This document shows, in pieces, positions 3,761 through 37,679 of a DNA stretch of 64,000 bases. The position numbers were made by a program, and so were the translations under genes. Source of the DNA: a virus; the IMG/VR virus record IMGVR_UViG_3300047557_003034, positions 1-64,000 of that record. One strand, written 5' to 3'. The notes below the pieces were generated by a model that was given only the letters and a program-made list of their open reading frames with translations, searched no databases and was not told the DNA's origin. Each line of letters opens with the position of its first letter. The stretch's first letter is position 1.

Positions 3761-3779
3761 AAACTAAAACACATTTAAA

Positions 3780-19300: not shown

Positions 19301-22197
19301 TAGGTGGTGGATTTGGAAACTCGATAGCTGGTGGAACCAATAATAGGTACGGTAACATTATTGTAGGTGGCTGTCTTAACAGTACTAGTGGTTACAATAG
19401 TGTAATAGTAGGAGGACACTCAAATACAATAAGTGGAACACAATCAGATACTGTAGGTTCAGTGATAGGTGGTGGTTGTTTCAACACTGTTAGTCTACTA
19501 GGTGCGATCTTCAGTGGTCATAGAAACTGTGTAATAGGTGTAAACTCTCAGGGAGAAGTAGGCGGTATCTTTGGTGGTGCATACAACACAGGATCTAATA
19601 GAAGTCACATCGTAGGTGGCTGTAATAACTCAGCAACTGGATGTAGATCTTTCATCGGATCAGGTACACGCAACTCAGTGTCAGGGTACGCTTCATCAGT
19701 AGTAGGAGGTTATCAAAACACCGGTTCTGCTAGCAACGTATTCGTAGGAAACGGAGCATTTAACGCAGCAGCTGCAACATACGCAGTCGTAGGAGGCGGT
19801 CAAGGCAATAGAGTACTAGGAGAAACCGGCTCAATAGCAGGCGGTTGGGGTAATACAATATGTCTTGCTGGTAGCGGTTCATTCATAGGAGGTGGTCGAG
19901 TAAATACTATAACAGCACAGCTATCAACAATAGGAGGTGGTGTTAATAATACTGGTTCAAACTCTTATACGTTTATAGGTGGTGGTGCAAGTAATACAGC
20001 AACTGGTCTATTTGCATCAGTCGTAGGAGGAGGTAGTAACTGTTCTGCATGCAACTTCGGTTTTGTAGGAGGTGGTCAAAATAACTGGTCAATAGGAAAT
20101 GAATCAACTATATCAGGTGGATATTGTAATAGGATATTAAACACAGTATCAACATTTATAGGAGGTGGTTTCAAGAACTGTGTTACATCAGGACCCTACT
20201 CAGCTGTAGCAGGTGGTATTTTAAACACGATCACAGTAAGAGATTTTAGAAACAGTGCAATAATAGCTGGAGGATCTACTAACACTGTAACAGCTGGTCT
20301 TAGTTTTATAGGCGGAGGTTGCACGAATACAGTAGCAGCAGAAACAGGATCAATAGTAGGTGGTGCTAGTAACACAATCTGCATAAGTGCAAGTGGATCA
20401 TTCATAGGTGGTGGTAGAGGTAATATAGTGTCAGGACAGCTAGCAGCAGTGGTAGGTGGTCAAAGTAATACAGCATCGGGATCTAATAGTTTTGTAGGAG
20501 GAGGTTTAGCTAATAATGCAGCAGGTGCAGTATCTGTCGTAGGTGGTGGATGTGGAAATCGAACAAGTAACACCTACACAACTATTGCAGGAGGACTTAT
20601 TAACACAACTAGCGGATACGGAGATACTATAGGTGGTGGTTATTTAAACATCACAGCAAATAACAACTATCAAGGAATCTTTAGTGGATATGGTAATCAA
20701 ACTACAGGTTCTTATAGTGCAGTACTAGGTGGTCTTCAAAACAGAGCAGCAGGTACAGCAGCAGCAGTAGGAAGTGGTTATTACAATGTAGCAGGTGGTT
20801 CTCACTCGTTTATAGGAAGTGGTAGAAACAACACTGCTAGCGGAACTTGCTCAACTATATCAGGTGGATACTTCAACGTCGCAACAGGCAACCATAGCTT
20901 CATAGGAAACGGTGCTTATAATAGCAACGTAGCATTAGGAGGTTTCATAGGAAACGGCTTTGAAAACTGTCTTACATCTGCAGCAGTATCATCCTCAGTA
21001 GTAGGCGGTGCTGATAACTGTGTTACAGGATGCTTTGCATTCATAGGAGGCGGTTGTCGAAACACTGGTTCAGGTGTATTTAGCTTCGTAGGAGTTGGTA
21101 ACAACAACAAAGCACTAAGTAACCATGGCCTAATAGTAGGAGGTAGAAACATTACCGTATCAGGAACTTATGGAATAGTAGGAGGTGGTGAAGGTAACTG
21201 TGTAACAGAAGTTTACGGATCTGTTTTTGGTGGTCTAACTAACTGTGTGATTGCTACTTACGGTTTTGTAGGTGGTGGTACTACCAATACGGTAGCAGGA
21301 CAAACCGGCTCAATAGTAGGTGGTCACAGTAATAGAATTTGCATCGGAGCATCCGGTTCATTTATAGGTGGTGGTCGCTCAAACGTTGCATTGGACGGCA
21401 TTGAAACAGTTATAGGAGGTGGCACAACTAACTGCACTAGTCAAAGATGGTCAGCAGTTGTAGGAGGTAACAACAACATCATAGCTAACTCAGCTGCATG
21501 TGCAAGTTTTATAGGTGCTGGTATCAGTAATATAATCTGCTGTGGATACAGTGTTATAGGAGGTGGATTTACGAACACAGCAATCCAGATGGGTAACGTC
21601 ATTGCAGGAGGCTTCAATAACTCAAACAGCGGTGCATACGGTGTTATAGGAGGTGGTTGTTTGAATGTGGTTACTGCAACAGCAGCTACAATAGCAGGTG
21701 GTGTTAGGAACTGTGCAACAGCAGCTTGCTCAGCAATCTTGGGTGGTAACTTCAACACAGCATCAGCAGTATTCGCAGGAGCTTTTGGATGCAACATCAA
21801 CGCAAATGTGGCTTGTCACTTCTTCGTTAATAACCTCTCCGTAACAAATAACGTAACAGGATCAAACGCCTGCTACACAGGCACAGTATCAGCAGCCTGT
21901 TTGATAGAAACATCATCAGAGAGGTATAAAGAGTGTATCAGACCTATAGGCTACAACACTGAAACTGTACAGCAACTTAATCCAATCCGCTTCCAATGGA
22001 AAGACAAAACCATCAGCAAGGATGACCAGTTAGGTCTCATTGCAGAAGAAGTGCAGAAGATAATGCCGGAAGCAGTGATCTTGAATGATAAAGGTGAAGC
22101 AGAAGGTATCTCATACACAAAACTTGTACCGGTTCTAATCAAAGCAGTACAAGAGTTAGAGCAAAGAGTTGTATATTTAGAGAGTAAACTAAAATAA
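13330..22197 (+). CDS. giant (2955 aa) Gly/Cys-rich repeat fibre with C-terminal peptidase S74-type chaperone
   Basis: About 15-aa repeats SFIGGGxxNxASGxx; C-terminal ETSSERYK...GLIAEEV...ISYTKLVPVLIKAVQEL. Confidence 0.85.
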   Translation: MANEFVARLGLISNCTLTVTGSSTLYGVICGGTNPIVAGDGSAVLNGWSNSAIGSGSIVGSGCQNIASGSCSAVVGGRFNTGSGGFSFVGNGYGNIASGSYTAIVGGLNNTGSGAFGFIGGGNNNKIIYNTTSDACYVAIGGGLNNTVCSRYSAIFGGVNNTIGIETDASTIVGGNANQVTSAGYSFVGGGGNNLSTGYYSFVGGGCGNRISIGICAYGVIVGGAGNCLVINNNSAIVGGQTNCIDGNYSFIGGGAGNRVIAASGSIVGGFSNIVSTAGCAGFIGGGQSNTVNSTAAVIGGGLSNSATGIYSIVAGGASNIANSSYAAVLGGTLNCATEFYSTVSGGYKSCATNQFSFVGGGRINVVSGNSAGIVAGRSNVASGQSSFIGSGFSNSASNCYAVAVGGSGSLASGIGSFVGGGFNNRATSACSVVVGGQQNTGSAAWTFVGGGISNTASNTYAFVGGGFCNVSSGLYATVTGGQFNTASFGFAFVGGGCRNAATSYASFVGGGDGNTASGYRNVVVGGAGNTASGYRAAIVGGSGNTNTGTNSFVGAGAQNNAGGLWSGIVLGRLNCTCTSSTASFIGGGQNNTVSNVLQSSIVGGGSNSVTATLGFIGGGAENTVAAETGSIVGGRGNVICIGGSGSFIGGGRSNVISSCLAAIVSGLTNTVSNFYGFIGGGTSNTVSGYLGAVLGGASNQATAGYSTVVGGQSNCAVGQKGFVGGGRCNRASGFAIVGGGCCNSASNYYTAILGGRQNTITTGGNCSIIGGGAFNTIAAYTGSIVGGDRNRICAAACGAFIGGGQQNTGSGVLTFIGGGQQNVAAGALSFVGGGQQNVATGILSFVGGGTFNTVAAATGSIVGGERNLITSTGCAAFIGGGQLNTGSAAWSFIGGGFNNYALGQGSFIGGGGSNLTFGSATSASVVSGTCNCAQGIASIVGSGCLNKATGTNTGVLGGSGNTASGACSTVVGGNGNVASGGYSIAGSGLTNSASGYLSALLGGESNTSGGSRSAVLGGRSNSASAYQSVAVGGGTNCATATAAAVVGGSLNTVSGACSFIGGGTLNTLSGIGGVIVGGSSNTGSANLGFIGGGGGNVVCNSYATVLGGENNRAMASRSTVGAGSGNLASGSYSGVFSGQNNNGSGSYSFIGGGVSNVALTVSVVAGGGQNTASGGYAIIGGGKQNSLSGDYASILGGTINAVTAIHGFVGGGCRNTVAGPSGSIVGGSRNCITTAGVESFIGGGYGNCTTAACTAILGGGFNTASAAFAGAFGCNLNASQACHFYVNNLSVPGNLTGSNMVLSGKLTVCQIEVQILSSSVSFFTGSTIFGSCLTNTHQFTGSVSITGSLRTCGPVCFTQTMAVGSGSTASGTYSSVAGGLSNTASGNCSHVGGGRANTTSGGFSTVGGGFSNSSSANYATTAGGIGNRAAGDSSFVGGGGSNLACGNCSAVVGGSLNSGSAAFTFVGGGSDNRATAFASAVVGGQVGLVSGEYSTISGGYRNTVAGCFGFVGGGYENTVSAQTGSIVGGRSNCICISASGSFIGGGRSNIVRGLLASAVGGVGNSASGSYSFIGGGSSNVVESCGGAVVSGTGNIIRAVVGGQGFIGAGAANTVSGCRAIIGAGVGNTASGDDNVIGGGFYNTVSNYQSVVVGGYQNVASNTRVFIGGGQNNLACGSLSVVAGGQLNTGSANLTSVLGGFGNRATAAGAVAVGGSSNQSAGASGFIGGGFNNTVSAPTGSIVGGAFNCLCTAACAAFIGGGQQNTGSGVMSFIGGGICNVASGNCSTIVGGQQNTGSGIFSFMGGGGRNAALGACSTVGGGEINIAGNQLSTVSGGYRNYACEYGATVAGGITNCVCGYIGTIAGGFGNAASGSYSFVGGGRQNLALAASSSIVGGCSNTICISASGSFIGGGQSNTVSGLLSAVVGGQSNLASGSHSFVGGGSSNAVRTCFSFIGGGTGNSITTSCCSVIVGGQNNTISGDFYQNWHFIGGGFGNSIAGGTNNRYGNIIVGGCLNSTSGYNSVIVGGHSNTISGTQSDTVGSVIGGGCFNTVSLLGAIFSGHRNCVIGVNSQGEVGGIFGGAYNTGSNRSHIVGGCNNSATGCRSFIGSGTRNSVSGYASSVVGGYQNTGSASNVFVGNGAFNAAAATYAVVGGGQGNRVLGETGSIAGGWGNTICLAGSGSFIGGGRVNTITAQLSTIGGGVNNTGSNSYTFIGGGASNTATGLFASVVGGGSNCSACNFGFVGGGQNNWSIGNESTISGGYCNRILNTVSTFIGGGFKNCVTSGPYSAVAGGILNTITVRDFRNSAIIAGGSTNTVTAGLSFIGGGCTNTVAAETGSIVGGASNTICISASGSFIGGGRGNIVSGQLAAVVGGQSNTASGSNSFVGGGLANNAAGAVSVVGGGCGNRTSNTYTTIAGGLINTTSGYGDTIGGGYLNITANNNYQGIFSGYGNQTTGSYSAVLGGLQNRAAGTAAAVGSGYYNVAGGSHSFIGSGRNNTASGTCSTISGGYFNVATGNHSFIGNGAYNSNVALGGFIGNGFENCLTSAAVSSSVVGGADNCVTGCFAFIGGGCRNTGSGVFSFVGVGNNNKALSNHGLIVGGRNITVSGTYGIVGGGEGNCVTEVYGSVFGGLTNCVIATYGFVGGGTTNTVAGQTGSIVGGHSNRICIGASGSFIGGGRSNVALDGIETVIGGGTTNCTSQRWSAVVGGNNNIIANSAACASFIGAGISNIICCGYSVIGGGFTNTAIQMGNVIAGGFNNSNSGAYGVIGGGCLNVVTATAATIAGGVRNCATAACSAILGGNFNTASAVFAGAFGCNINANVACHFFVNNLSVTNNVTGSNACYTGTVSAACLIETSSERYKECIRPIGYNTETVQQLNPIRFQWKDKTISKDDQLGLIAEEVQKIMPEAVILNDKGEAEGISYTKLVPVLIKAVQELEQRVVYLESKLK

Positions 22198-24746: not shown

Positions 24747-27700
24747 ATGGCATACTTACAGTGTACGGTCATTACTGGGTCTCAAAATGTATTGAGTGTT
24801 ATAGGTTCAGGTAGTGCCACGACATCTTCTTTGTTATCTGTCGATGGAAATAGCGGAAGGCTGTTCCAAGTAACCGACACATTATCTGGTTCTCTCTTCT
24901 CTGTCAATACAGTATCGGGTCTACCCGTAATAGAGGCATTTTCCGACAACACTGTCCGCATTGGACAGTACGGTCAGAAGGCACTTTTTGTATCACAATC
25001 CAAGGTAGGAGTTGGCAAGGAAGACTCACTTAACGGAACACTAGACGTATCAGGCAGCTTAACTGTTACCGGATCAACCAATATCAACGGTAATCTCACA
25101 GGATCTAATGCTCTTTTGACAGGAACTTTGACAGTGAACACGATCAATGTCAGCATACTGTCATCTTCAATAAGCTTCTTTACGGGTTCTACGATATTTG
25201 GATGCTCAATTTCCAATCAACATCAATTTACGGGATCTGTTAGCATAACAGGAAGTTTAAGAACATGCGGTCCCATGTGCTCCACTACAACAATGGCAAT
25301 AGGTAGTGGATCTACAGCATCAGGCATCTACAGTAGTGTAGCAGGAGGTAGATTGAACACAGCATCAGGAAACTATTCACATATAGGAGGCGGTAGTGGT
25401 AGCCTAGCATTAGGTGTAAATTCGTTTATAGGCGGTGGTCAGTTTAACTGTATTCCTGCCGGTGGTCAATGTGCAGTAATAGGAGGCGGTCAATACAACA
25501 CTGGATCGTCGGTGTTAGGTTTCATTGGTGGTGGTACCAATAACAATATGTCTTGTTTTTACGCTGTGATTGGAGGTGGTATATCAAATACAACAAGTGG
25601 ATACGGCTCAGTAATCGCAGGAGGTAACATAAACAATAACTCAGGTAGATGGGGATTCTTAGGTGCTGGACGCTCAAATCAGCTATCAGGAAACTGTACT
25701 GCTATCGTTGGTGGTGGTAGTAACACGGTTAGTGGATTCTACAATGCAATAGTAGCAGGATGTGCTAATACTGTTAGTAATAGTGGTAGTTTCATTGGTG
25801 GAGGCTTTGGTAACACGGTATTAGCAGATACCGGATCAATAGTAGGTGGTCGTAGTAATATAATCTGCTTAGGTGGCTCCGGTTCATTTATAGGTGGTGG
25901 CCAAAGTAATACAGTCTCCGGTAAGTGCAGTGCGGTAGTAGTAGGTCAGCTTAATAGTGCTACTGGTGAAAATGGATTTGTAGGCAGTGGTTATCAAAAC
26001 TCATTCACTGGTTTTAGAGGTGGTATTGTAGCTGGTCAGCAAAATACGTTATCATCCGTTTACGGATTTATAGGTTCAGGTCTCTCAAACGTAGTTGCAG
26101 CTAGTTCTACCTCAATAATAGCTGGTCAAAATAACTGTGCTATTGGAGCACTTTCCATTATAGGAGGTGGTAACTTCAACAGAATGTCAGCTAACTGCGC
26201 AGCAGTAGTAGCTGGTACGTACAACACGGGTTCAGGAGCAGGCAGCTTCATAGGTGCTGGTAGTGGAAGTGTGGCAGCAGGAGCTCTAACATTTATAGGA
26301 GGCGGTCAATTTAACTGTGCATCAGCTAACTATGCAGCAGTAGTAGGAGGCTTTCAAAATACAGGTTCAGGTACGTTTAGCTTTGTGGGTGGAGGCGGTG
26401 GAAATACTGCAGCAGGTGCATGTTCTACAGTAGGCGGTGGTGAAATAAACATTGCAAGCAGCCAGATATCAACGGTATCAGGTGGATATAGAAACTATGC
26501 AGCAAGCTACGCTGCAACTGTAGGGGGTGGATTGCTAAACTGTGCATGTGGATACAACGGAACTGTATCAGGCGGATACAGAAACTCAGCATCAGGAAGC
26601 TACTCTTTTGTAGGAGGAGGTAAGCAGAACCTAGCACTAGCAGTATCAAGTTCAGTAGTAGGAGGCTGGCTTAACTGTGTAACTACTAATGGTACTGGTT
26701 CATTCATAGGAGGTGGTCAGGGCAACACAGTAACAGGACGACTATCAACAGTAGTAGGTGGTGCTGGTAACCAAGTTACCGGAAACTGCTCAACAATATC
26801 TGGTGGATACTTTAACGTAGCTACTAATACATTAGCAGCAGTAGTAGGTGGTCGGAATAATCAAGCACGAGGAGAAAATAGCGTAGTAGGTGGATATTTC
26901 AACTGTGCTTGTGGTGTTTCAAGCATAGTAGCAGGCGGACACAATCAGACTGTGCTAAGCAGTTATGGCACTGTAAGTGGAGGTTACAACAACTGTATTA
27001 CATCAACTCTAGCTGATTCATCGACAATTAGTGGTGGATATCAAAATAGAATATCAAGCATCCGTTCCGTCATAGCAGGAGGTCAAAATAACGTTATCAG
27101 TGGAAACCGATCATTCATAGGGGGTGGTCGACAAAATACAGCATCAGGCAACTATGCATCAGTAGCAGGTGGTAGTGGAAGTGTAGCATCAGGACTTAAC
27201 TCATTCGTAGGAGGCGGTCAATTCAACCTAGCAAACGGTGCATGTGCATCGGTAGTAGGTGGCTTTCAAAACACTGGTTCAGGTGGATTTAGCTTTGTAG
27301 GAGGCGGTACAGGAAGTATTGCAGCAGGACTTTATAGCTCTGTAATAGGTGGATTCATAAACTGTGCTAGCCAAGTCTACGCAACAGTAGGTGGTGGTGG
27401 TAGGAATCTTTCAAGTGGAAACAGTACGACAGTAAGTGGTGGCTATGGTAACCAAGCAACAGTCACCTTCGCAAGTGTGTTAGGTGGTGTAGGCAACGTA
27501 GCTACGGGACATACCTCAACTGCGGTAGGAGGACAATCCAACTCAGCAACAGCTTGTCATTCGTTTGTAGGAGGTGGTGCATCAAATACGGTAGCAGCAG
27601 AAACAGGATCTATAGTAGGTGGTCGTAGTAACAGCATAACTTCAAACGGCTCTGGTTCATTTATAGGTGGTGGTCAAGGTAACATAGTCTCAGGACAGCT

Positions 27701-30700
27701 ATCGACAGTGGTAGGTGGTCTTGTTAATCAAGTTACTGGCTGTCATAGTGTTGTGGGAGGTGGTATAACTAACTGTGTAACTGGAAATTGCTCTACAGTA
27801 GCAGGTGGCAGACTTAACACTGTAAGTAATAATTATTCTGTAATTGCTGGAGGTAATGTTAATACTGCATCAGGTCAAGCTTCTTTCGTAGGTGGTGGCT
27901 TCCGAAATACAAGCGGACTCACCTATTCAATAGTAGTTGGTGGTATAGATAACATATCAAATGCTAACAGATCAGTAATAGTTGGTGGTGAGTCCAATTG
28001 TATTGTGACCGGTGGTTATAGTTTCATAGGCGGTGGTCAACTGAACACTGGATCAGGAGCGTTTAGCTTCATAGGAGGAGGTAGTGGTAGTGTGGCAGTA
28101 GGAGCTAATTCATTTATAGGAGGCGGTCAATTCAACATAGCAGGTAACTGTGCAGCAGTAGTAGGTGGGCAATTAAACACAGGTTCAGGGTACTGGAGCT
28201 TTGTAGGTGGAGGCTGTTTGAATCTAGCAATTGGAAACAATTCATTTGTGGGTGCTGGTAGGCAAAACTGCACTACGCAAAACTGTTCGGTATCAGTTGG
28301 AGGATACAACAATGTTGCTAGCGGTGTCAATTCAACAGTAGTTGGAGGCTTTGTAAACACAGCAAGTGGTTATAGATCGGGAATACTAACTGGTCAAGGT
28401 AACGTAGCAGATGGTCAGTGGAGCTTTCTTGGTGGTGGAAACTTCAACCAAGCAAACGGCGTCTGCTCAGTTACTGTGGGTGGTAGATTTAACTGCTCAA
28501 ATGCAACATCGTCTTTTGTAGGTGGTGGATGTGGAAACTACGTTGTAGCAAACAGTGCATCAATAGTAGGTGGACACGGTAACATAGTAACCGTTGGAGG
28601 CTCTGGTTCATTTATAGGTGGTGGTCAAGGAAACTTAGTATCAGCACAGCTATCAGCACTGGTAGGAGGTTTTGGTAACCTAGCATCAGGAAATGGCTCA
28701 TTTGTAGGAGGTGGTGTTATAAACTGTGCAACTGGAAACTGCTCTACAGTAGGTGGAGGACGTTGGAATGTAGCATCAAACAACAGTGCAACTGTTATAG
28801 GAGGTTGGGTTAACACAGCATCAGGTCTTTATAGTGTGACAGCAGGTTACGAAAACAAAAACTCAGCCAATTACGGAGTAATACCAGGAGGTGGTACTAA
28901 CTGCTTACAAGCAGGTGCAAGCTATTCAACAATATCAGGAGGCTACACAAACATATTAACTAACACATACTCTGCAATTGGAGGTGGTCTTCGAAACAGT
29001 GGGTCAGGTGCATTTAGCTTCATAGGAGGTGGTTTCTGTAACAACAACGCAGCAGCAGGAGGCTTTATAGGAGGTGGTTTTAACAACTGTTTAACTACAG
29101 CTGCAGTATCAGCTTCAATAGCAGGCGGTGATAGAAACTGTGCTACAGGCTGCTTTGCATTCATAGGAAATGGTCAACTGAACACTGGATCAGGAGTTTA
29201 CAGCTTCGTTGGAGGTGGTTCTGGAAATAGAGCAACACTCAACGGTGCTGCTGTTGTGGCAGGCACAACTAACGGAGCTACAGACGTAGCTGCATTTGTA
29301 GGAACTGGTTTTTGTAATAATGCAACTGGCAGAGCATCTGCAATCGTCAGCGGTTTTCTCAACTCAGCATCGAACTTTTACGCAGCAGTACTTGGCGGTG
29401 CTCGCAACTGTGCAATTGCTAGAGCATCAGCAATAGTAGGTGGATGTGTAAATGCAGCAAGAGCTTCCGGATCATTCATAGGAGGTGGTCAACAAAACTG
29501 CAACTCAGGAGATTGTGCAGTGATAGGTGGTGGTATCCAAAATTGCCTAACAGGTAATGCGTCAGTTTTAACAGGAGGTAGTGCTAATGCAGTTGGTGCA
29601 CCACATGCATTCCTGGGAGGTGGTCAATTCAACTTAACATCAGGATCCCACTCTAGTATAGTTGGTGGTGTACTTAATTGTGTTATGGGCAATTGTACAA
29701 CCGTAGTTGGTGGTCAAAGCAACACTGGTTCAGGAGCATGGAGCTTTGTAGGAGGCGGTCAGTGTAATAACGTATCAGCAAATTATACAACACTATCAGG
29801 AGGATACTTCAATACAGCATCAGGTAGGTATGCAACACTCGTAGGTGGAGATTCTAACACAGCTGGCGGTAGAGCTAGTTTTGTTGGTGGAGGCATTAAC
29901 AACAGAACATGTGCACCAGCCTCATCATCAGTTCTTGCTGGTGGTCAAAGTAACGTATTGCAAGGACTGAGAAGTGCAATGTTGGGAGGCTATCTCAACA
30001 CTGTATCAAGCACATACGGAACAATAGGAGGTGGTTATTTCAATATAGTAGGCGGAGCAAACGGATTTATAGGTGCAGGTGACACCAACTTTGTATCAGG
30101 ATCACATGCAAGTGTGGTAGGAGGATTTGGAAACTGTGCAACAGGCAACTGCTCAGCAGTAGTAGGAGGTTTTCAAAATACCGGATCAGGCATAGCTAGT
30201 TTCGTAGGAGGTGGCATTCAAAACTGTGCTTGCGGTTGCAGGACTTTTGTAGGAGGTGGATCTAATAACTGCGCATTCGATAGCTGGGCAACAGTAGGTG
30301 GCGGCTATCTTAATGTGGCCAGCGGATCACATAGTACAGTTGGAGGTGGCTGTACAAACATAGCTAGTGGATCGGCTGCTACTGTGGCTGGTGGATCTAA
30401 CAACTGCGCATTTGAACTCTCGGCAACTGTGGGTGGTGGTGGAGTGAATACTGTTAGAAGGTGTTTTGGTACAATTGCTGGAGGATATTTGAACTGTACA
30501 GATGGTGCTTTTGGAACCATCAGTGGCGGTTATCAAAACAGAGCTAGTGGATCCCACAACTTTATAGGCAGCGGTCGCTGTAACACATCCAGCGGATCTT
30601 ATGTGGCAATAGTAGGCGGACGGTTCAACTGTATTGAAGGAGCAGTCTCCTATAGCTTTTTAGGAGGTGGTCAGTTGAATATTGTGGCTGCAACAGCAGC

Positions 30701-31298
30701 TACTATAGCAGGTGGTGATAGAAACTGCATAACAGCAGCTTGTTCAGCAATCTTGGGAGGCACTCTTAACACTGCATCAGCAGTATTTGCAGGAGCTTTT
30801 GGATGTAACATTAATGCAAATGTAGCAAACCACTTCTTTGTTAACAATCTTAACGCAACAAATAACATCACGGGATCAAATGCTCGCTTTACAGGTACAG
30901 CAACAATAGGTTCTGCACTTGCAGTTGGAGCAATAACGCCATCAGCAACAGTAGGTCGTATTGACGCAGCCAACGACGTAGTAGCATTTTCAACTTCAGA
31001 TAGGAATCTCAAGACCAATCTTACTCCAATTTCAGATGCACTTTATAAGATAGCGGAGATAACAGGATATGAATTTGATTGGATACCAAACGAAGAGATA
31101 CATGGGTACGAAGGTCATGATGTAGGTATCATAGCTCAAGAGATAGAGAAAGTACTTCCTGAAGTGGTAACAACAAGATCTAACGGCTACAAAGCAGTTA
31201 AGTATGAGAAGATTGTACCACTCCTCATTCAAGCAATTAAAGAACAAAGCCAGCAAATAAAGAGATTAGAAGAGTTAATCAAGACAATCAAAGGGTAA
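24747..31298 (+). CDS. giant (2183 aa) Gly/Cys-rich repeat fibre with C-terminal peptidase S74-type chaperone
   Basis: Same 15-aa repeats as fibre 1; C-terminal FSTSDRNLKTN...GYEFDW...DVGIIAQEIEKVLPEVV...VKYEKIVPLLIQAIKE. Confidence 0.87.
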   Translation: MAYLQCTVITGSQNVLSVIGSGSATTSSLLSVDGNSGRLFQVTDTLSGSLFSVNTVSGLPVIEAFSDNTVRIGQYGQKALFVSQSKVGVGKEDSLNGTLDVSGSLTVTGSTNINGNLTGSNALLTGTLTVNTINVSILSSSISFFTGSTIFGCSISNQHQFTGSVSITGSLRTCGPMCSTTTMAIGSGSTASGIYSSVAGGRLNTASGNYSHIGGGSGSLALGVNSFIGGGQFNCIPAGGQCAVIGGGQYNTGSSVLGFIGGGTNNNMSCFYAVIGGGISNTTSGYGSVIAGGNINNNSGRWGFLGAGRSNQLSGNCTAIVGGGSNTVSGFYNAIVAGCANTVSNSGSFIGGGFGNTVLADTGSIVGGRSNIICLGGSGSFIGGGQSNTVSGKCSAVVVGQLNSATGENGFVGSGYQNSFTGFRGGIVAGQQNTLSSVYGFIGSGLSNVVAASSTSIIAGQNNCAIGALSIIGGGNFNRMSANCAAVVAGTYNTGSGAGSFIGAGSGSVAAGALTFIGGGQFNCASANYAAVVGGFQNTGSGTFSFVGGGGGNTAAGACSTVGGGEINIASSQISTVSGGYRNYAASYAATVGGGLLNCACGYNGTVSGGYRNSASGSYSFVGGGKQNLALAVSSSVVGGWLNCVTTNGTGSFIGGGQGNTVTGRLSTVVGGAGNQVTGNCSTISGGYFNVATNTLAAVVGGRNNQARGENSVVGGYFNCACGVSSIVAGGHNQTVLSSYGTVSGGYNNCITSTLADSSTISGGYQNRISSIRSVIAGGQNNVISGNRSFIGGGRQNTASGNYASVAGGSGSVASGLNSFVGGGQFNLANGACASVVGGFQNTGSGGFSFVGGGTGSIAAGLYSSVIGGFINCASQVYATVGGGGRNLSSGNSTTVSGGYGNQATVTFASVLGGVGNVATGHTSTAVGGQSNSATACHSFVGGGASNTVAAETGSIVGGRSNSITSNGSGSFIGGGQGNIVSGQLSTVVGGLVNQVTGCHSVVGGGITNCVTGNCSTVAGGRLNTVSNNYSVIAGGNVNTASGQASFVGGGFRNTSGLTYSIVVGGIDNISNANRSVIVGGESNCIVTGGYSFIGGGQLNTGSGAFSFIGGGSGSVAVGANSFIGGGQFNIAGNCAAVVGGQLNTGSGYWSFVGGGCLNLAIGNNSFVGAGRQNCTTQNCSVSVGGYNNVASGVNSTVVGGFVNTASGYRSGILTGQGNVADGQWSFLGGGNFNQANGVCSVTVGGRFNCSNATSSFVGGGCGNYVVANSASIVGGHGNIVTVGGSGSFIGGGQGNLVSAQLSALVGGFGNLASGNGSFVGGGVINCATGNCSTVGGGRWNVASNNSATVIGGWVNTASGLYSVTAGYENKNSANYGVIPGGGTNCLQAGASYSTISGGYTNILTNTYSAIGGGLRNSGSGAFSFIGGGFCNNNAAAGGFIGGGFNNCLTTAAVSASIAGGDRNCATGCFAFIGNGQLNTGSGVYSFVGGGSGNRATLNGAAVVAGTTNGATDVAAFVGTGFCNNATGRASAIVSGFLNSASNFYAAVLGGARNCAIARASAIVGGCVNAARASGSFIGGGQQNCNSGDCAVIGGGIQNCLTGNASVLTGGSANAVGAPHAFLGGGQFNLTSGSHSSIVGGVLNCVMGNCTTVVGGQSNTGSGAWSFVGGGQCNNVSANYTTLSGGYFNTASGRYATLVGGDSNTAGGRASFVGGGINNRTCAPASSSVLAGGQSNVLQGLRSAMLGGYLNTVSSTYGTIGGGYFNIVGGANGFIGAGDTNFVSGSHASVVGGFGNCATGNCSAVVGGFQNTGSGIASFVGGGIQNCACGCRTFVGGGSNNCAFDSWATVGGGYLNVASGSHSTVGGGCTNIASGSAATVAGGSNNCAFELSATVGGGGVNTVRRCFGTIAGGYLNCTDGAFGTISGGYQNRASGSHNFIGSGRCNTSSGSYVAIVGGRFNCIEGAVSYSFLGGGQLNIVAATAATIAGGDRNCITAACSAILGGTLNTASAVFAGAFGCNINANVANHFFVNNLNATNNITGSNARFTGTATIGSALAVGAITPSATVGRIDAANDVVAFSTSDRNLKTNLTPISDALYKIAEITGYEFDWIPNEEIHGYEGHDVGIIAQEIEKVLPEVVTTRSNGYKAVKYEKIVPLLIQAIKEQSQQIKRLEELIKTIKG

Positions 31299-31301
31299 GT
31301 T

Positions 31302-32189
31302 ATGGCGATACCAGCATCAGGACCGGTTTCAATGAGTATGCTCAATGTTGAATTGGGCAGAAGTTTTAACACAGCCAACTCAGCTCTGGCAGGTTCTTCG
31401 ACACCTTCCATAGGATCTCTATTCTATCTTGGTGCACAGAGTGGTAGTCTTAATCAAACAGCACCACATGCAATAAGTGAGTGGTACGGATACACTACTA
31501 TAATTCCACAACCTACACTTAAGTATGATGCTTACAGCAGTAGCTACGACGGATCTGTATCAGTTAACTTAGGTTCAGGAGGTACAACGTATAACTTAAA
31601 TGAGACAGGAACTGTAGAGACTGGTAGTGGAACTAATCTAGGAAGCAATTACTATAATATAAACTTGCCTGGAACTACAACTGGATATCTTACATCTAGT
31701 TTTTCTCCCGTACCGTCCAACACTTCATTCTCTATTAGTATAATGGCATTTATTACTGGTAGCTCTGGTCAACTGTTTAGTATAGAATTAGCAACAGGTA
31801 ACCGACTATACATCGAGACTAATTTTGTAACAACTGGTGTGTACGATATCAGAGCTAATTTATACTCAGCAGGTACTAGAGTAGTATACTTATCTGGATC
31901 TATAAATCAAAATGATTGGAATCACATAGTTTGGGTGCATGATAACAACTTAGCTACGGACGATAGTAAGCTGTACATCAACAATGCATTAGCTCAATCT
32001 GTCACAGCAACCAATAACATATCTCAAACTGATGCATATCAAATCAGAGTTGGTATTAACATACTTTCGACCATTGTTAGCTATAGATTAGGATCGGTCT
32101 CTTTCTGGAATGGTTACTATCTAGCACCTTTACAAATAGAAGACCTATATAACGAGTTCTACGACAGATACGTGTACGTACCCGTATAA
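31302..32189 (+). CDS. putative fibre-tip/adhesin-like protein with LamG-like C-terminal domain
   Basis: MAIPASGPVSMSMLNVELG N-terminus, of a type commonly found right after S74 fibres; WNHIVWV and LYINN motifs. Confidence 0.55.
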   Translation: MAIPASGPVSMSMLNVELGRSFNTANSALAGSSTPSIGSLFYLGAQSGSLNQTAPHAISEWYGYTTIIPQPTLKYDAYSSSYDGSVSVNLGSGGTTYNLNETGTVETGSGTNLGSNYYNINLPGTTTGYLTSSFSPVPSNTSFSISIMAFITGSSGQLFSIELATGNRLYIETNFVTTGVYDIRANLYSAGTRVVYLSGSINQNDWNHIVWVHDNNLATDDSKLYINNALAQSVTATNNISQTDAYQIRVGINILSTIVSYRLGSVSFWNGYYLAPLQIEDLYNEFYDRYVYVPV

Positions 32190-32222: not shown

Positions 32223-32231
32223 CTATTTATA
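32223..32231 (+). promoter_or_regulatory. putative late promoter CTATTTATA
   Basis: Intergenic motif. Confidence 0.7.
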
Positions 32232-32250: not shown

Positions 32251-32589
32251 ATGATGATAATTGGCAAAATCGATCCGACAGCTACAATATACCTTCAATC
32301 GGATCCGTTTAATCCTTCTACAATTACAGGATCTTACATTGCTGCTGTAGCACGTCCTTATGTTCTTGGTACCAACAGTGTAAACTTCCAAGTGTCTTAT
32401 GGTAACTGTACTTTCGATGAAGGTGGTAACATAACTGAGTTCACTACTATCTTCAATAGTAATTGCAACCTTTCTGGTACAGCAATTGAGACTTGGGGTA
32501 CAGATGACACAGTAGTTCTTCAAGAGATTGCACAAGCGCAAGGTACAACTGTTACACAGTTCTACTCAAGCAGTCTTAACATATTCTAA
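32251..32589 (+). CDS. hypothetical, probably virion-associated protein
   Basis: Clean ORF under the late motif. Confidence 0.55.
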   Translation: MMIIGKIDPTATIYLQSDPFNPSTITGSYIAAVARPYVLGTNSVNFQVSYGNCTFDEGGNITEFTTIFNSNCNLSGTAIETWGTDDTVVLQEIAQAQGTTVTQFYSSSLNIF

Positions 32590-32631: not shown

Positions 32632-33507
32632 ATGAACATAATATTCCAAATCAACGGAGGAATAGGTAAATGTATTATGGCTACCGCTGTATGCGAAGCC
32701 ATTAAAAAGCAATACCCAAACTCTAAGCTCATAGTTGTTTCAGGATACGCAGATGTGTTCTTAAATAACCCACATGTTGATAGATCGCTGCAGTTTGGCA
32801 GCATAAGTTACTTCTACGAAGAGTATTTGCAAAACGAGAAGGACTTCAAAGTATTCGCTCACGATCCGTACGTACAAACCGAATATCTCTACCAAAATGA
32901 ACACTTGATTCAAACTTGGTGTGAGATGTTCGGCATTGCTTATGATGGTGAATACCCAAGCATACATCTGACAGATAGAGAAAAAACATTCCTAAGCTCC
33001 AAATTTACATCGGATAGACCGATGCTAGTAATGCAAACAAATGGAGGAGCTGATGCAAACTTAAAGTACTCCTGGGCAAGAGATTTACCAGCCAATAACG
33101 TAACGGATGTAGTACAATACTTTTCTGAGCATTATAACATTGTGCATATAAGAAGAGAAGATCAAATACAATATCCAGGCACAATACCAGTATCAGACAA
33201 CTTCAGATCACTTGTGGTGCTTATATCACTGAGCCATAAGAGGCTGTTTATTGATAGCATGGGTCAACATGTGGCTGCATGTTTAGGATTACCATCAACA
33301 GTGTGTTGGGTTGTGAATAAACCTGAAGTCTTTGGATACCCAATACACGATAACATCATCTGTAAACCATTCACCAAGAAACCAGAGCTGAGAAATTCAT
33401 ACTTCCAGCAGTTCAATATTGGTGGTGATTTACTAGAATTTCCCTATAACTCCGAACACGAAGTGTTTGATAGCAAAGACATCATAAACTCAATACTAAA
33501 ACAATAG
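32632..33507 (+). CDS. glycosyltransferase, GT9/heptosyltransferase-like
   Basis: GGIGKCIMATAV..AIKKQYPNSKLIVV..VFLNNPHVD N-terminus; LFIDSMGQHVAACLGLPSTVCW C-terminal motif. Confidence 0.7.
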   Translation: MNIIFQINGGIGKCIMATAVCEAIKKQYPNSKLIVVSGYADVFLNNPHVDRSLQFGSISYFYEEYLQNEKDFKVFAHDPYVQTEYLYQNEHLIQTWCEMFGIAYDGEYPSIHLTDREKTFLSSKFTSDRPMLVMQTNGGADANLKYSWARDLPANNVTDVVQYFSEHYNIVHIRREDQIQYPGTIPVSDNFRSLVVLISLSHKRLFIDSMGQHVAACLGLPSTVCWVVNKPEVFGYPIHDNIICKPFTKKPELRNSYFQQFNIGGDLLEFPYNSEHEVFDSKDIINSILKQ

Positions 33508-33512
33508 GTTAC

Positions 33513-34331
33513 ATGGAGAAGTTATTCTTTCAGAGTTCTTTACCGAGAGCAGGCAGTACACTTTTACAAAACATTCTCGCACAAAACCCAGACATCTATG
33601 CTACTCCTACATCAGGAGTGTTAGAACTTGTGTTTGCAGCAAGAGGAAATTACACTGAATCACCAGAGTTCATTGCTCAAGATCCAAGTCTAATGCGAGC
33701 AGGCTTTTTATCCTTTTGTAGAAAGGGAATGGATGGCTTTTACGAAGCTGTGACAGACAAGAAGTACGTAGTAGATAAATCAAGAGGATGGGGAATACAC
33801 TACGACTTCCTCAACCTAATCTATCCAGAACCCAAGATCGTTGTCATGGTTAGGGACCTAAGAGACATCTTCTGTTCAATGGAGAAGAACTTCAGAAAGA
33901 ATCCTGACAAAGCTAGTTCAGTTCTTAACTGGTCACAGATGAGCGGTACAACAGTACCTAAGAGGATTGATATATGGGCTCAATCACAGCCGGTAGGACT
34001 TGCAATAGAGAGGTTGTCTGAAATATTCAGGCAGGGACTTGACAGTAAAATGCTATTTGTTCGCTTTGAAGATCTTTGTTTATATCCCGAAACTGAGATG
34101 ACTAGGATCTATCAATACCTCGATATCCCCTACTACCAGCATGATTTTGATCATATAGAACAAGTGACAAAGGAAGATGATGAGGTGTATGGTATGTTCG
34201 GAGATCACCAGATCAGAACTAAGTTAGCTCCTGTACCATCTACTGCTAAACAAGTACTTGGAAAGGATGTAACAGAGTGGATTTGGAATGCATACCCCTG
34301 GTATTTCCAACAGTTTAGGTACACAAAATAA
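33513..34331 (+). CDS. sulfotransferase (PAPS-dependent fold)
   Basis: 5'-PSB loop SLPRAGSTLLQNIL, DKSRGW, 3'-PB VMVRDLRDIFCS and VRFEDL. Confidence 0.88.
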   Translation: MEKLFFQSSLPRAGSTLLQNILAQNPDIYATPTSGVLELVFAARGNYTESPEFIAQDPSLMRAGFLSFCRKGMDGFYEAVTDKKYVVDKSRGWGIHYDFLNLIYPEPKIVVMVRDLRDIFCSMEKNFRKNPDKASSVLNWSQMSGTTVPKRIDIWAQSQPVGLAIERLSEIFRQGLDSKMLFVRFEDLCLYPETEMTRIYQYLDIPYYQHDFDHIEQVTKEDDEVYGMFGDHQIRTKLAPVPSTAKQVLGKDVTEWIWNAYPWYFQQFRYTK

Positions 34332-34335
34332 AAGT

Positions 34336-34773
34336 ATGATATACTGGTTCACTGGTCAGCCTGGAGCAGGCAAAACAACTCTCTGCAAAAGTCTCATTCT
34401 TCAGTTCTACCCGTCTAAGACAATTCACGTGGATGGTGACGACATAAGAGAGATTTTTGAAAATAAAGATTACTCGGAAGCAGGTAGAAGAAAAAACGTA
34501 GAGCTTGCACAGAACATTGCCTACTTCATGCATAAAAAAGGCTACCTAGTGTTGGTTTCACTAGTATCTCCTTATAAAGATCAAAGAGAAGCCTTCAAAG
34601 CACGGCTAGGTGACTCAATTAAGGAAATCTACGTACATGCGTTTACAGATAGGGGTAGAACGCAGTTTCACGTGGCTAATTACGAGCCTCCTACTGAGAA
34701 CTACATTGACATAGATACAACAAATGCCACTGAATTTGAGTCGTTAAAACAGCTATTAACACAGATAAAATAA
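34336..34773 (+). CDS. cysC: adenylylsulfate (APS) kinase
   Basis: Start is probably ATG 34336. WFTGQPGAGKTT, DGDDIR, DYSEAGRRKN, VSLVSPY..QR and YEPP motifs. Confidence 0.85.
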   Translation: MIYWFTGQPGAGKTTLCKSLILQFYPSKTIHVDGDDIREIFENKDYSEAGRRKNVELAQNIAYFMHKKGYLVLVSLVSPYKDQREAFKARLGDSIKEIYVHAFTDRGRTQFHVANYEPPTENYIDIDTTNATEFESLKQLLTQIK

Positions 34774-35135
34774 TGATAAAAGAAGCAGAAATAGTTGAAA
34801 AAGGTTGGGGACAGGAAGTGGTGTTTGCAAATAGCCAGCAGTATTGTGGTAAAATACTCGTATTCAAGGAAGGTGGTACTAGCTCAATGCATTACCACAT
34901 ACAAAAGCAAGAGACTTGGTACGTTACAAAAGGTAAGTTTCTGTACAAGTACATTGATACAGATACAGCAGATGTACTAGAGGCTGAACTAAATGTCGGA
35001 GATGTTGTGACAAATCTAAGAGGAGAACCACATCAGTTAATAGCTCTAGAAGAGAATAGTGTAATATTCGAAGTGTCAACAGAGCATATAGATGAGGATT
35101 CTTACAGAGTATTTAAAGGAGATTCACAACAATGA
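34773..35135 (+). CDS. cupin-fold sugar isomerase/epimerase-like protein
   Basis: KGWGQE, SMHYH..KQETWYV..G, PHQL, IFEVST and DSYRV motifs. Confidence 0.75.
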   Translation: MIKEAEIVEKGWGQEVVFANSQQYCGKILVFKEGGTSSMHYHIQKQETWYVTKGKFLYKYIDTDTADVLEAELNVGDVVTNLRGEPHQLIALEENSVIFEVSTEHIDEDSYRVFKGDSQQ

Positions 35136-35545
35136 AAGTTTGGGTAAATGGAACATTTGATGTTTTACATTTGGGGCATATTAGGTTACTTGAGTATGCT
35201 GCCAGTCATGGAGAGGTCAGAGTGGGGGTGGACACAGATGAGAGAGTTAGACAGGCGAAAGGTCCAACCAGACCCTTTAACATACTTAGAGATAGGATGG
35301 CTATGCTATCATCTATCAGGTATGTTAGTAGCGTCGTGTCTTTTGGTACAGATGATGAACTTGTACAATGTGTTATGGAGTACAAACCTGACATTATGGT
35401 AGTTGGCTCAGATTATGAGAACAAGAGGGTTATTGGTCATGAGCATGCGGATGTTTTAATATTCTTTCCCAAAATCCAATCGTACAGCACAACTGACATA
35501 TTAAGGTATGAAACAAATATTAATAATCGGGGATCAGTGTATTGA
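35132..35545 (+). CDS. heptose-1-phosphate adenylyltransferase-like (HldE/RfaE domain II)
   Basis: NGTFDVLHLGH, DTDERV..AKGPTRP, GSDY and STTDIL motifs. Confidence 0.82.
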   Translation: MKVWVNGTFDVLHLGHIRLLEYAASHGEVRVGVDTDERVRQAKGPTRPFNILRDRMAMLSSIRYVSSVVSFGTDDELVQCVMEYKPDIMVVGSDYENKRVIGHEHADVLIFFPKIQSYSTTDILRYETNINNRGSVY

Positions 35546-36251
35546 TAAGTTTGTGTACGGAGAAGCAAAGAGACTAAGTCCTGAAGCTCCTGTACCAGTC
35601 TTTACACCTCATAATACAGCAACCAGCAATGGAATGGCTGCAAATGTTGCACGTAATCTACGAGCAATGGCTCCCGAATACATGATAACAACTCAACACA
35701 ATCCGGAAACCATAACTAAGACTAGGTATATCGATCATAAGACAAATCATATGTTTCTTAGAGTGGATGAAGGAGATACTGTGAAACCACTTGAACTAGA
35801 TCTAAAACTAAGAGCTTCCATCCCAGAATTTGATGCTGTTGTAGTAAGCGATTATAACAAAGGATACCTACCACTCAGCGTTATTGAGTACATAGGTAAG
35901 AATGCCAAAATGTCTTTCATTGACTCTAAAAAGAAGCTGCCACTAGAAGTTGCTAGTCTTTATACTATTGTCAAAATGAACGAACAAGAGTATGAGAGCT
36001 ATAACGGGTCTCTAGACTCAATCTCAAACAGCCTCATAATCACACTAGGTAGTAAGGGAGCTAAGTATAAGCACAAAGTATTCAACTCACTGCAGCCAAA
36101 AGAAACGATAGATGTGAGTGGTGCTGGAGATACTTTCCTAGCAGCATTCGTATATTGGTACCTACAGACAGGATCAATCCAATCAGCAATAGTCCATGCC
36201 AATGAAAAAGCCGCTATAGTTGTAACTAAAAAAGGAGTTGCTGTACCATGA
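35508..36251 (+). CDS. heptose-7-phosphate kinase-like (HldE/RfaE domain I, PfkB family)
   Basis: IGDQCIDKFVYG..KRLSPEAPVPV, AANVA.NL, SDYNKG and DVSGAGDTF motifs. Confidence 0.9.
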   Translation: MKQILIIGDQCIDKFVYGEAKRLSPEAPVPVFTPHNTATSNGMAANVARNLRAMAPEYMITTQHNPETITKTRYIDHKTNHMFLRVDEGDTVKPLELDLKLRASIPEFDAVVVSDYNKGYLPLSVIEYIGKNAKMSFIDSKKKLPLEVASLYTIVKMNEQEYESYNGSLDSISNSLIITLGSKGAKYKHKVFNSLQPKETIDVSGAGDTFLAAFVYWYLQTGSIQSAIVHANEKAAIVVTKKGVAVP

Positions 36252-37060
36252 ATATAGTAGTGACTGGTCATTTAGGTTTTATTGGTCGTAATCTGAAAGC
36301 AGAGCTTGAAAAGAAACACCAAGTCTACGGGATTGAAGTAGATGCCTATGATGATGCAGACTGGCAATTTACACTAAAAAACAAACTGGATAGCATAAAA
36401 CCAACTGCTATTTTTCATGTAGGAGCAATATCAAACACGCTTCATACGGACGTTGAAACCATAATGAAACTAAACTGGGAGACAACAACAGTGTTTTCAG
36501 ACTACTGCAAAGCAGTAAACATTCCACTAATCTACAGCTCAACTGCAGCTATCTACGGAGATGGTGAAGGTAAGAAAAACCTATATGCTTGGACTAAGTA
36601 TGCAGGAGAGAAGTATGTAATAGCAAACAATCAAATAGCTCTCAGGTACTTCAACGTATACGGACCTGGAGAGGATAAAAAGAAACGTATGGCATCAGTT
36701 GCCTACCAAGCCTTTTTGCACGATATACACGGAACCAAGATCAAGCTGTTCAAAGGAGAACCAAAGAGAGACTTCGTATACGTAAAGGATGTAGTGGATG
36801 CAAACATATTCGCACTTAAGAATTACTTCAAACTAACTAAGAAACAATATGATGTGGGTGTTGGTAAAGCGGTTACGTTTGAGTATCTTATGGATATAAT
36901 GAATCTCAAGTACGCATATCAAGATATATCAGCAATACCAAACAACTATCAATACCATACCCAAAGTAATCCTGAAAACTGGATGAAGGGTTGGAAACCT
37001 AAATACGACGTTGAGAAAGGATTAAATGAATACAAGCAACACTTATGGAATACTATTTAG
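36248..37060 (+). CDS. ADP-L-glycero-D-manno-heptose 6-epimerase-like SDR (HldD/RfaD)
   Basis: VTGHLGFIG, FHVGAIS, YSSTAAIYG, YAWTK, LRYFNVYGPGE..K.RMASV and RDFVYVKDV motifs. Confidence 0.85.
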   Translation: MNIVVTGHLGFIGRNLKAELEKKHQVYGIEVDAYDDADWQFTLKNKLDSIKPTAIFHVGAISNTLHTDVETIMKLNWETTTVFSDYCKAVNIPLIYSSTAAIYGDGEGKKNLYAWTKYAGEKYVIANNQIALRYFNVYGPGEDKKKRMASVAYQAFLHDIHGTKIKLFKGEPKRDFVYVKDVVDANIFALKNYFKLTKKQYDVGVGKAVTFEYLMDIMNLKYAYQDISAIPNNYQYHTQSNPENWMKGWKPKYDVEKGLNEYKQHLWNTI

Positions 37061-37443
37061 CAAGAGCAGCTGGAGATTTGCTGACAAAAGGACCTAAATA
37101 TGCCATGTTCATAGGAAGATGGCAACCATGGCATGCTGGACATAGGTGGCTTATTGATCAAGCACTTAACAAAGGTAAAAATGTTCTCATCTGCATAAGA
37201 GATGTAGAACCTGATGATAAAAATCCTTGGACTGCAAAGCAGATACTTGACAATCTTGCAAACGAGCTTAAAGATTTGCTTTTAGAAGGCAGAGTAGTAC
37301 TGCTTGTGATTCCTGACATAGAGTCTGTCAACATAGGTAGAGGTGTTGGATATGATGTAATAGAACATACACCACCCGAAGAAATCAGACAGATATCAGC
37401 AACAGCAATCAGGGAAGAAATGAAAAAGGAAGGTAAACTGTGA
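37045..37443 (+). CDS. HxGH nucleotidyltransferase (cytidyltransferase-like; candidate minimal ATP sulfurylase)
   Basis: FIGRWQPWHAGH, NPW, GRGVGY and ISATAIR motifs. Confidence 0.7.
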   Translation: MEYYLARAAGDLLTKGPKYAMFIGRWQPWHAGHRWLIDQALNKGKNVLICIRDVEPDDKNPWTAKQILDNLANELKDLLLEGRVVLLVIPDIESVNIGRGVGYDVIEHTPPEEIRQISATAIREEMKKEGKL

Positions 37444-37652
37444 AGGTAACTGCAAAACGACATATAGCAAAAACAATCAGCTACCGTATTGTAAGTACGT
37501 TGATAGGGTTTTTGATAATGTGGTGGGCAACAGGAAGTGTGAAAGTGGGAGCGGCTTTTGGTGTAGCTGAACTGATCTATAAACCAGTTCAATACTACAT
37601 TCATGAGAGAGTTTGGTATAAATGGATAAAATTTGGATTAGTGAAAGAGTAG
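37440..37652 (+). CDS. DUF2061-like small membrane protein
   Basis: RHIAKTISYR...YYIHERVW. Confidence 0.75.
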   Translation: MKVTAKRHIAKTISYRIVSTLIGFLIMWWATGSVKVGAAFGVAELIYKPVQYYIHERVWYKWIKFGLVKE

Positions 37653-37671: not shown

Positions 37672-37679
37672 TATTTATA
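37672..37679 (+). promoter_or_regulatory. putative late promoter TATTTATA
   Basis: Intergenic motif. Confidence 0.6.

Follow-up and report, generated by a model that had tools for sequence, protein, structure and literature searches.

A two-module gene island beside the fibre genes of a T4-like phage that may make a sulfated heptose-type sugar

Why should a phage carry, between its fibre genes and its sheath gene, enzymes for sugar activation, sugar transfer and sulfation, and on what would their product be placed? The question is raised by the IMG/VR contig IMGVR_UViG_3300047557_003034, a 77-kb record (about 41% complete by estimate), of which we analyzed positions 1 to 64,000, called the window here. 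Nine plus-strand open reading frames (ORFs), g1 to g9, fill positions 32632-37652 with spacings of -38 to +5 nt, bordered upstream by a block of repeat fibres and downstream by the sheath gene (38287-40407), and the ORF listing thus bears out a sequence-only reading that had described nine tightly coupled genes between fibres and sheath (Table 1). The same reading had assigned a GT9-like transferase, a sulfotransferase, an adenosine 5'-phosphosulfate (APS) kinase, a cupin, HldE domains II and I, an HldD-like epimerase, an HxGH nucleotidyltransferase and a DUF2061 protein; these assignments hold in profile hidden Markov model (HMM) and structure searches, with eight of the nine labels recovered by family searches and g1, for want of a Pfam match, as the exception. 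Drawing on folds, motifs, modules and gene linkages, we tentatively infer that the island belongs to a single, probably late transcription unit that would build and attach a sulfated heptose-type sugar, with the neighbouring fibres as the acceptor.

Set against 70 IMG/VR loci carrying a g1 relative, the island proved to consist of two modules, a core (g1, g2, g3, g8, and g9) and an optional sugar-supply insert (g4-g7). The transferase and the sulfotransferase occur together in about 60 of the 70 loci, and in about 40 they are followed by the APS kinase, g8, and DUF2061. In the 36 of these without the heptose cassette, the kinase gene and g8 overlap or lie directly side by side, and the four heptose genes are found, apart from the window, in only six loci (L008, L010, L011, L026, L031, and L060), always between the kinase g3 and g8. 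In the core module, g1 would transfer the sugar and g2 would sulfate it, both in the cytoplasm, with 3'-phosphoadenosine 5'-phosphosulfate (PAPS) supplied by g3, by g8, which may adenylylate sulfate, and by the DUF2061 protein g9. The insert would convert sedoheptulose-7-phosphate to nucleoside diphosphate (NDP)-heptose through the isomerase g4, the kinase g6, the nucleotidyltransferase g5, and the 6-epimerase g7. The heptose-plus-sulfate glycan suggested from the sequence alone still stands as an idea, with a changed reading on three counts: the heptose genes are optional, this copy has no gene for the phosphatase step of its relatives, and g1 lacks the catalytic Asp of WaaC.

The AlphaFold model of g1, built on a 72-sequence alignment of diverse homologues, has a predicted local distance difference test score (pLDDT) of 96.9, and the first 12 Foldseek matches to it are all GT9 chains, led by 3tov (E 6e-13, template modelling (TM) score 0.67) and followed by WaaF, WaaC, and TibC. 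Profile comparisons gave E 0.031 for the g1 family profile against WaaF, E 2e-5 for hhalign to WaaC/WaaF, and 22.9 bits (cut-off 22) for one fused family member against the GT9 Pfam model. The segment I-D-S-M-G-Q-H-V-A-A of g1 aligns with the C-terminal nucleotide-sugar motif D-S/T-G-x-x-H-x-A-A of GT9 enzymes (D261 to H266 of WaaC), and its residues D208, S209, Q212, and H213 are each at least 90% conserved in the family. Heptose transfer from ADP-heptose is a putative activity of g1, suggested by its co-occurrence with heptose cassettes.

The g1 family HMM finds gp53 of HTVC111P (E 4e-38) and the T4-GC 302 proteins of S-SSM7, S-CAM3, and P-SSM2 (E 1e-25 to 1e-28). Metagenomes yielded 1,677 homologues of g1 at E <= 0.001, and fusions with an FkbM methyltransferase or a GT25 domain occur within the family. 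Close relatives lie almost exclusively on phage contigs, and a scan of 185,579 prokaryotic species gave matches only on two short, phage-like contigs of metagenome-assembled genomes (MAGs). By these profile matches and gene neighbourhoods, g1 is a member of a phage-specific GT9-like clade that is paired with a sugar-tailoring enzyme (a sulfo-, carbamoyl-, or methyltransferase).

The sulfotransferase g2 matches the NoeE model at E 1.6e-10 and keeps both PAPS-binding loops, P-R-A-G-S-T for the 5'-phosphosulfate and R-D-x-R-D-x-x-x-S for the 3'-phosphate. The cultured cyanophages S-SCSM1 and S-SKS1 also encode sulfotransferases, whose gene contexts are unrelated to this one. In g3 the P-loop, DGDxxR, and S-P-x-x-x-x-R motifs (the last as SPYxxxR) are present and invariant in 21 homologues; its lid is short and its TIGR00455 score is under the cut-off. 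We consider the Met codon at 34336 the likelier start of g3: the longer ORF, from 34288, would overlap g2 by 44 nt, and the Met encoded there is where each of the 20 aligned homologues starts, not upstream of it.

Several linkages connect g3 with the small nucleotidyltransferase g8. Among 42 related loci with both genes, 36 show them overlapping or side by side, a single PHROG profile covers g3-like and g8-like proteins, phages of Xylella, Xanthomonas, and Stenotrophomonas encode the two as one fused protein, and the ESM Atlas holds viral and archaeal clusters that combine APS_kinase and CTP_transf_like domains. The g8 family has 5,285 metagenomic homologues at E <= 0.001. We put g8 forward, with some doubt, as a candidate sulfurylase (sulfate adenylyltransferase).

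The DUF2061 family, to which g9 belongs, has no described function. In at least 7 of 15 DUF2061-carrying Bacteroidota genomes (L079-L087), its gene adjoins cysH or is flanked by cysQ and cysC, and it is reported alongside nodH, nodP, and nodQ in Mesorhizobium nod loci; among longer DUF2061 forms we found tandem or extended versions only and no informative fusion. From this company, DUF2061 looks like an accessory membrane protein of sulfate activation. Together, the kinase-g8 links and the DUF2061 linkage make a self-contained PAPS supply in the island plausible, with a hypothetical step from ATP and sulfate to APS. The arrangement is like that of rhizobial Nod-factor sulfation (NodH/NoeE, NodPQ) in having a NoeE-like sulfotransferase with its own PAPS-supply genes and DUF2061, and unlike it in having a 132-aa protein similar to nicotinamide mononucleotide adenylyltransferases (NMNATs) instead of a CysD/CysN- or Sat-type ATP sulfurylase and in an acceptor that would be no lipochitooligosaccharide.

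The three heptose enzymes g5-g7 all score under the NCBIfam equivalog cut-offs while keeping their signature motifs. The candidate nucleotidyltransferase g5 reaches 91.2 bits on TIGR02199 (cut-off 181.5) and has HxGH and STT, without the Arg of the STTR5 rule (PMC11573728). The predicted kinase g6 reaches 134.7 bits on TIGR02198 (cut-off 345), has the Burkholderia heptose-7-phosphate kinase 4e84 as its best solved relative (E 8e-14), and retains R-L-S-P-E-A-P-V-P-V and G-A-G-D. The predicted epimerase g7, with GxxGxxG, Ser, and YxxxK, reaches 168.2 bits on TIGR02197 (cut-off 274.6), and its next-best family is at only 1e-9. The island shares its pathway logic, GT-B fold, and donor motif with the inner-core heptosylation of lipopolysaccharide (LPS) by HldE/HldD and WaaC/WaaF. 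Unlike in that system, HldE is split with its domains in reversed order, the proteins are 15-25% shorter than their bacterial counterparts, and GmhA and GmhB are missing.

The sequence-only reading had noted that GmhA and GmhB are not in the window, and indeed neither a SIS-type GmhA nor a HAD phosphatase is present even in the 77-kb record. A search for SIS-type GmhA (SIS_2) likewise found none in two 95-96% complete relatives and four complete cyanophage genomes. Because the carrier genomes searched lack GmhA, the cupin g4, which travels with the cassette in both lineages, may be the isomerase and is the best candidate for it. Its metal ligands H-x-H...E...H are complete, and it gives weak matches to lyxose isomerase and mannose-6-phosphate isomerase models. 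The earlier suggestion that the cupin might replace the isomerase thus has indirect support: it keeps company with kinase, nucleotidyltransferase, epimerase, and, in other loci, the HAD phosphatase, and the six complete or nearly complete carrier genomes searched contain no SIS-type GmhA. No convincing solved relative backs it, however (best matches oxalate decarboxylase, E 1e-4, and lyxose isomerase, E 0.09).

A phosphatase gene is part of the cassette elsewhere: six of the six cassette-bearing relatives have a 101-aa mini-HAD gene between the cupin and the nucleotidyltransferase (e.g., L008:8954-9259). Its product is 43-47% identical to proteins of P-SSM2, S-SSM7, S-CAM3, and S-SM2 that GenBank calls "phosphoheptose isomerase". 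The motifs DxDxT, T-A-R, K-P, and D...D-K are invariant, and profile searches relate the protein to the small HADs 9iqw (E 1e-19) and 1xpj (E 1e-8). Judged by these HAD motifs and matches, the mini-HAD is not an isomerase; it is a HAD phosphatase and GmhB analogue, and the cyanophage annotation is wrong. In the phage pathway that activates arabinose, dephosphorylation of the sugar bisphosphate has been assigned to a HAD of the 1xpj type (PMC13326640, 2026). The cyanophage mini-HAD genes (T4-GC 306) encode capless proteins and lie at L001:8722-9066, L002:10661-10996, L076:7710-8030, and L077:12981-13292.

Where the sugar would go is suggested first by a promoter-like octamer. The window has nine copies of TATTTATA, all on the plus strand (13274, 24704, 32224, 37672, 41272, 41845, and 53968, as well as 1577 and 46992), whereas dinucleotide-preserving shuffles gave a mean of 4.0 copies with both strands counted. 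Seven of the nine lie 8-56 nt 5' of gene starts, namely those of both giant fibres, the 112-aa gene before the island (g112), the first gene beyond the island, the tube gene together with its downstream neighbour, and one more. The gene g112 and the island make up exactly one inter-motif unit, and the closest relatives have the same strand bias of TATTTATA and the same framing of the island. Matches to sigma-70-type promoters in the window were not above chance. We regard TATTTATA as probably a late-type promoter element of this lineage, and the framing that island and virion genes share argues for their co-expression.

The fibres themselves have features of a possible acceptor. The consensus of the 15-residue fibre repeat, S-F-I/V-G-G-G-x-x-N-T/C-A/V-S/T-G, has conserved Ser, Asn, and Ser/Thr/Cys positions. 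The Cys content of the two giant fibres is 3.1-3.5%, compared with 0-0.4% in the other virion proteins; these residues could form extracellular disulfides or serve as sugar acceptor sites. Two P-SSM2 proteins encoded beside its g1-family gene (L001:1671-2741 and 3470-4537) contain 10% Cys.

The link between transferase and fibre genes is not confined to this lineage, since fibre genes have a g1-family gene directly after or next to them in three phage lineages that are unrelated. The 31-kb genome of Pelagibacter phage HTVC111P has, from the island, only the g1-family gene (L096:8989-9870), whose start abuts the end of a tail-fibre gene with 17-residue repeats. The same phage encodes a homologue of RTX-toxin-type lysine acyltransferases (L096:3231-3638) just 5' of a tail protein gene and thus holds two candidate virion-modifying enzymes in one small genome. 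Gene position and the shared promoter-like motif lean toward the virion, and we tentatively favour the phage's own fibres as the acceptor. The sugar would be added to the neighbouring Ser/Thr/Cys-rich repeats during assembly, much as TibC and Aah modify repeat adhesins encoded by adjacent genes.

The likeness to TibC/TibA and Aah/AIDA-I lies in a GT9-related fold (4rb4 and 4rap, E ~2-4e-7) and in a transferase gene that adjoins the gene for a surface protein, a Ser/Thr-rich beta-solenoid of short repeats; the targets of TibC and Aah are modified in the cytoplasm. A length of about 400 aa, a four-Cys iron-finger motif (CxxC), and dodecameric assembly are what we take to be the hallmark of these bacterial autotransporter heptosyltransferases (BAHTs). 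By comparison, g1 has 291 aa and no CxxC, and it is nearer to WaaF and WaaC than to TibC.

A number of observations weigh against a fibre-directed, sulfated heptose. The g1 protein falls below the Pfam gathering threshold of PF01075 (GT9). Profile comparison aligns Lys13 of g1 with the catalytic Asp13 of WaaC, and the same position holds Lys in HTVC111P and Arg in three cyanophage relatives. Unlike WaaC, g1 thus lacks the catalytic Asp; without that residue g1 is GT9-like and not a proven heptosyltransferase. About 90% of the relatives have no heptose cassette, so that g1 may use another donor or ADP-heptose of the host. The HAD phosphatase is absent from both the window and the 77-kb record although all cassette-bearing relatives have one, and the bisphosphate phosphatase step would therefore have to come from the host. 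The g8 protein is NadM-like in both sequence and fold, with NadM-type NMNATs as its top fold matches; the Sat-type ATP sulfurylase model PF01747 matches nothing in the record, and no sulfurylase is among the listed fold matches of g8. Finally, fibre-adjacent hypervariable regions of marine T4-like phages gather host-directed genes too (PMC7029224).

Neither Pfam nor fold supports membership of g8 in an ATP sulfurylase family, which we dropped, keeping the activity as a functional hypothesis only. The nearest solved relatives raise the improbable alternative that g3, g8, and g9 are no PAPS supply at all: g8 might produce NAD or some other adenylylated cofactor, for instance to counter NAD-depleting defences, g3 might phosphorylate a different adenylyl compound, and the sulfotransferase might use host PAPS. 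It gains from fused APS-kinase-like and NMNAT-like proteins in Xylella, Xanthomonas, and Stenotrophomonas siphophages (e.g., gp32 of Xylella phage Salvo, L097:4641-5387), whose neighbours are early or nucleotide-metabolism genes and do not include a sulfotransferase. However, g3 keeps the APS-kinase-specific DGDxxR, Y-S..G-R..N, and S-P-Y motifs, and in about 40 loci g3 and g8 occur together with a sulfotransferase. DUF2061, for its part, has links with cysC, cysH, and cysQ as well as with nodH, nodP, and nodQ, and true NMNATs exceed g8 in length by 35-50 residues.

A second alternative keeps the enzymes and changes the acceptor. The sugar would be placed on a host envelope glycan (LPS core, O-antigen, or capsule), remodelling the infected surface, which could block adsorption of other phages, or of the phage's own progeny, to infected cells and debris. 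Leaving aside those that modify adhesins, all characterized GT9 enzymes have the LPS inner core as their substrate, and they head the fold matches of g1; moreover, the core set includes a membrane protein, DUF2061. Carbamoyl-heptose is a known feature of the LPS core in Pseudomonas. Published readings in cyanophages and pelagimyophages also favour LPS modification (PMC7029224, PMC7378029). Yet the promoter-like motif of the unit is also that of virion genes, with no separate early-type signal, bacterial genomes lack the g1 clade save for the two phage-like MAG contigs, and the catalytic Asp of LPS heptosyltransferases is replaced. Even in the distant 31-kb Pelagibacter phage the g1-family gene comes after a fibre gene, and the link to sulfate metabolism accounts for DUF2061. 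We consider the host envelope an unlikely acceptor on this balance, though far from a negligible one.

That the sugar ends up on phage DNA as a hypermodified base seems very improbable. Phage clusters that place heptose on 5-hydroxymethylcytosine have been reported (bioRxiv 10.1101/2023.12.21.572611), GT-B enzymes are able to act on DNA, and the arabinosyl and heptosyl DNA hypermodification clusters (PMC13326640; bioRxiv 10.1101/2023.12.21.572611) resemble the island in having a kinase, a nucleotidyltransferase and, as in the relatives, a 1xpj-type mini-HAD. Unlike those clusters, the island comes with no enzyme that we could find for making hydroxymethyl- or hydroxy-pyrimidines, and its genes are in the virion block, not the replication block. 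No hydroxymethylase of the thymidylate synthase fold and no C5 methyltransferase was found in the record or in the two 95-96% complete relatives with a full island; a TET/JBP oxygenase was likewise not found in them, a weak negative because the TET/JBP model matched no control genome. We set DNA glycosylation aside because these precursor enzymes were not found.

With the fibres retained as the tentatively favoured acceptor, the closest published relative of the island is the T4-GC 302-308 "LPS gene" cluster of cyanomyoviruses (PSSM2_307-313 of P-SSM2, S-SSM7_120-133, and gp148-154 of S-CAM3). Like the island, it has a g1-family transferase and a tailoring enzyme followed by nucleotidyltransferase, kinase, cupin, and epimerase, beside tail-fibre genes. 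In three genera of Kyanoviridae, a carbamoyltransferase gene comes after the g1-family gene and precedes the heptose cassette, next to tail-fibre genes; the carbamoyltransferase stands in place of the sulfotransferase and PAPS-supply set found here. The heptose proteins of the two clusters are 38-44% identical but the g1 proteins only about 24%, and the cyanophages keep the mini-HAD phosphatase that the window lacks.

Heptose genes and their position beside fibre genes are thus known at annotation level in cyanomyoviruses and pelagimyophages (PMC7378029, PMC7029224), and a 2024 commentary called the role of viral NDP-heptose enzymes unsolved (PMC11573728). Such genes of ocean phages have been named "LPS genes" since about 2005 without any test. 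New here are the sulfation variant with a PAPS supply of its own, the modular picture, and a phage-only transferase clade without the catalytic Asp, with the re-identification of the mini-HAD and the link of DUF2061 to sulfate activation as side results. To the known gene sets the locus adds a sulfation arm and a plan of three parts linked to fibre genes: the transferase, a tailoring enzyme that can be exchanged, and a sugar supply that is optional. Should the fibres prove to be the target, this would be a new kind of virion modification that affects host recognition in very abundant aquatic phages; the small NMNAT-like g8 is a candidate ATP sulfurylase of a new kind that can be put to the test. 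The boldest version of the proposal, which we hold to be rather unlikely as a whole, is that several marine and freshwater phage lineages coat their fibres with sulfated (or carbamoylated) heptose by means of an Asp-less GT9-like transferase and make their own PAPS with a minimal synthase of NMNAT-derived g8 as a new ATP sulfurylase, a short APS kinase, and DUF2061.

Table 1. Features of the sugar-modification island and its surroundings, in window coordinates
Feature	Position	Strand	Basis
g1, phage-clade GT9-fold (GT-B) transferase, 291 aa	32632..33507	+	predicted fold, donor motif, hhalign
g2, PAPS-dependent sulfotransferase (NoeE/NodH-like)	33513..34331	+	Sulfotransfer_3 PF13469, 71.6 bits (cut-off 27)
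g3, APS kinase with shortened lid	34336..34773	+	APS_kinase PF01583, 62.9 bits (cut-off 21.1)
g4, metal-binding cupin, candidate sedoheptulose-7-phosphate isomerase	34773..35135	+	Cupin_2; phrog_7851 E 3e-35
g5, predicted heptose-1-phosphate nucleotidyltransferase (HldE domain II-like)	35132..35545	+	TIGR02199 E 5e-26; phrog_7878 E 5e-37
g6, predicted heptose-7-phosphate kinase (HldE domain I / HldA-like)	35508..36251	+	TIGR02198 E 4e-39; phrog_8133 E 1e-75
g7, predicted NDP-heptose 6-epimerase (HldD-like short-chain dehydrogenase/reductase)	36248..37060	+	heptose_epim TIGR02197 E 2e-49
g8, 132-aa NMNAT-like nucleotidyltransferase	37045..37443	+	CTP_transf_like; HxGH and ISxT motifs
g9, DUF2061 small membrane protein	37440..37652	+	PF09834 E 5e-16
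TATTTATA, promoter-like octamer, 27 nt 5' of g112, opens the unit	32224..32231	+	motif count
TATTTATA, next copy, 26 nt 5' of the following gene, closes the unit	37672..37679	+	motif count
2183-aa fibre of 15-residue repeats, candidate acceptor	24747..31298	+	period 15; Ser 12%, Thr 8%, Cys 3%
2955-aa paralogue of the repeat fibre	13330..22197	+	paralogy
g112, 112-aa Ser/Thr/Asn-rich protein, first gene of the unit	32251..32589	+	conserved directly 5' of g1 in ~25 related loci

A blastn comparison of the island DNA with 50,697 phage records gave no DNA match. The nearest cultured relative of the sheath protein is in Flavobacterium phage immuto (48% identity), and cyanophage sheaths are only distant; on this sheath comparison the phage is a T4-like myovirus outside the Kyanoviridae. 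The fibre block contains ORFs of 2955, 2183, 295, and 112 aa in this order. The last of these, g112, has no Pfam or PHROG match. The 295-aa protein (31302-32189), which follows the 2183-aa fibre, matches Laminin_G_3 at E 1e-5, slightly under the cut-off, and may be a receptor-binding or sugar-binding module of the fibre tip with a weak concanavalin-A-like lectin domain.

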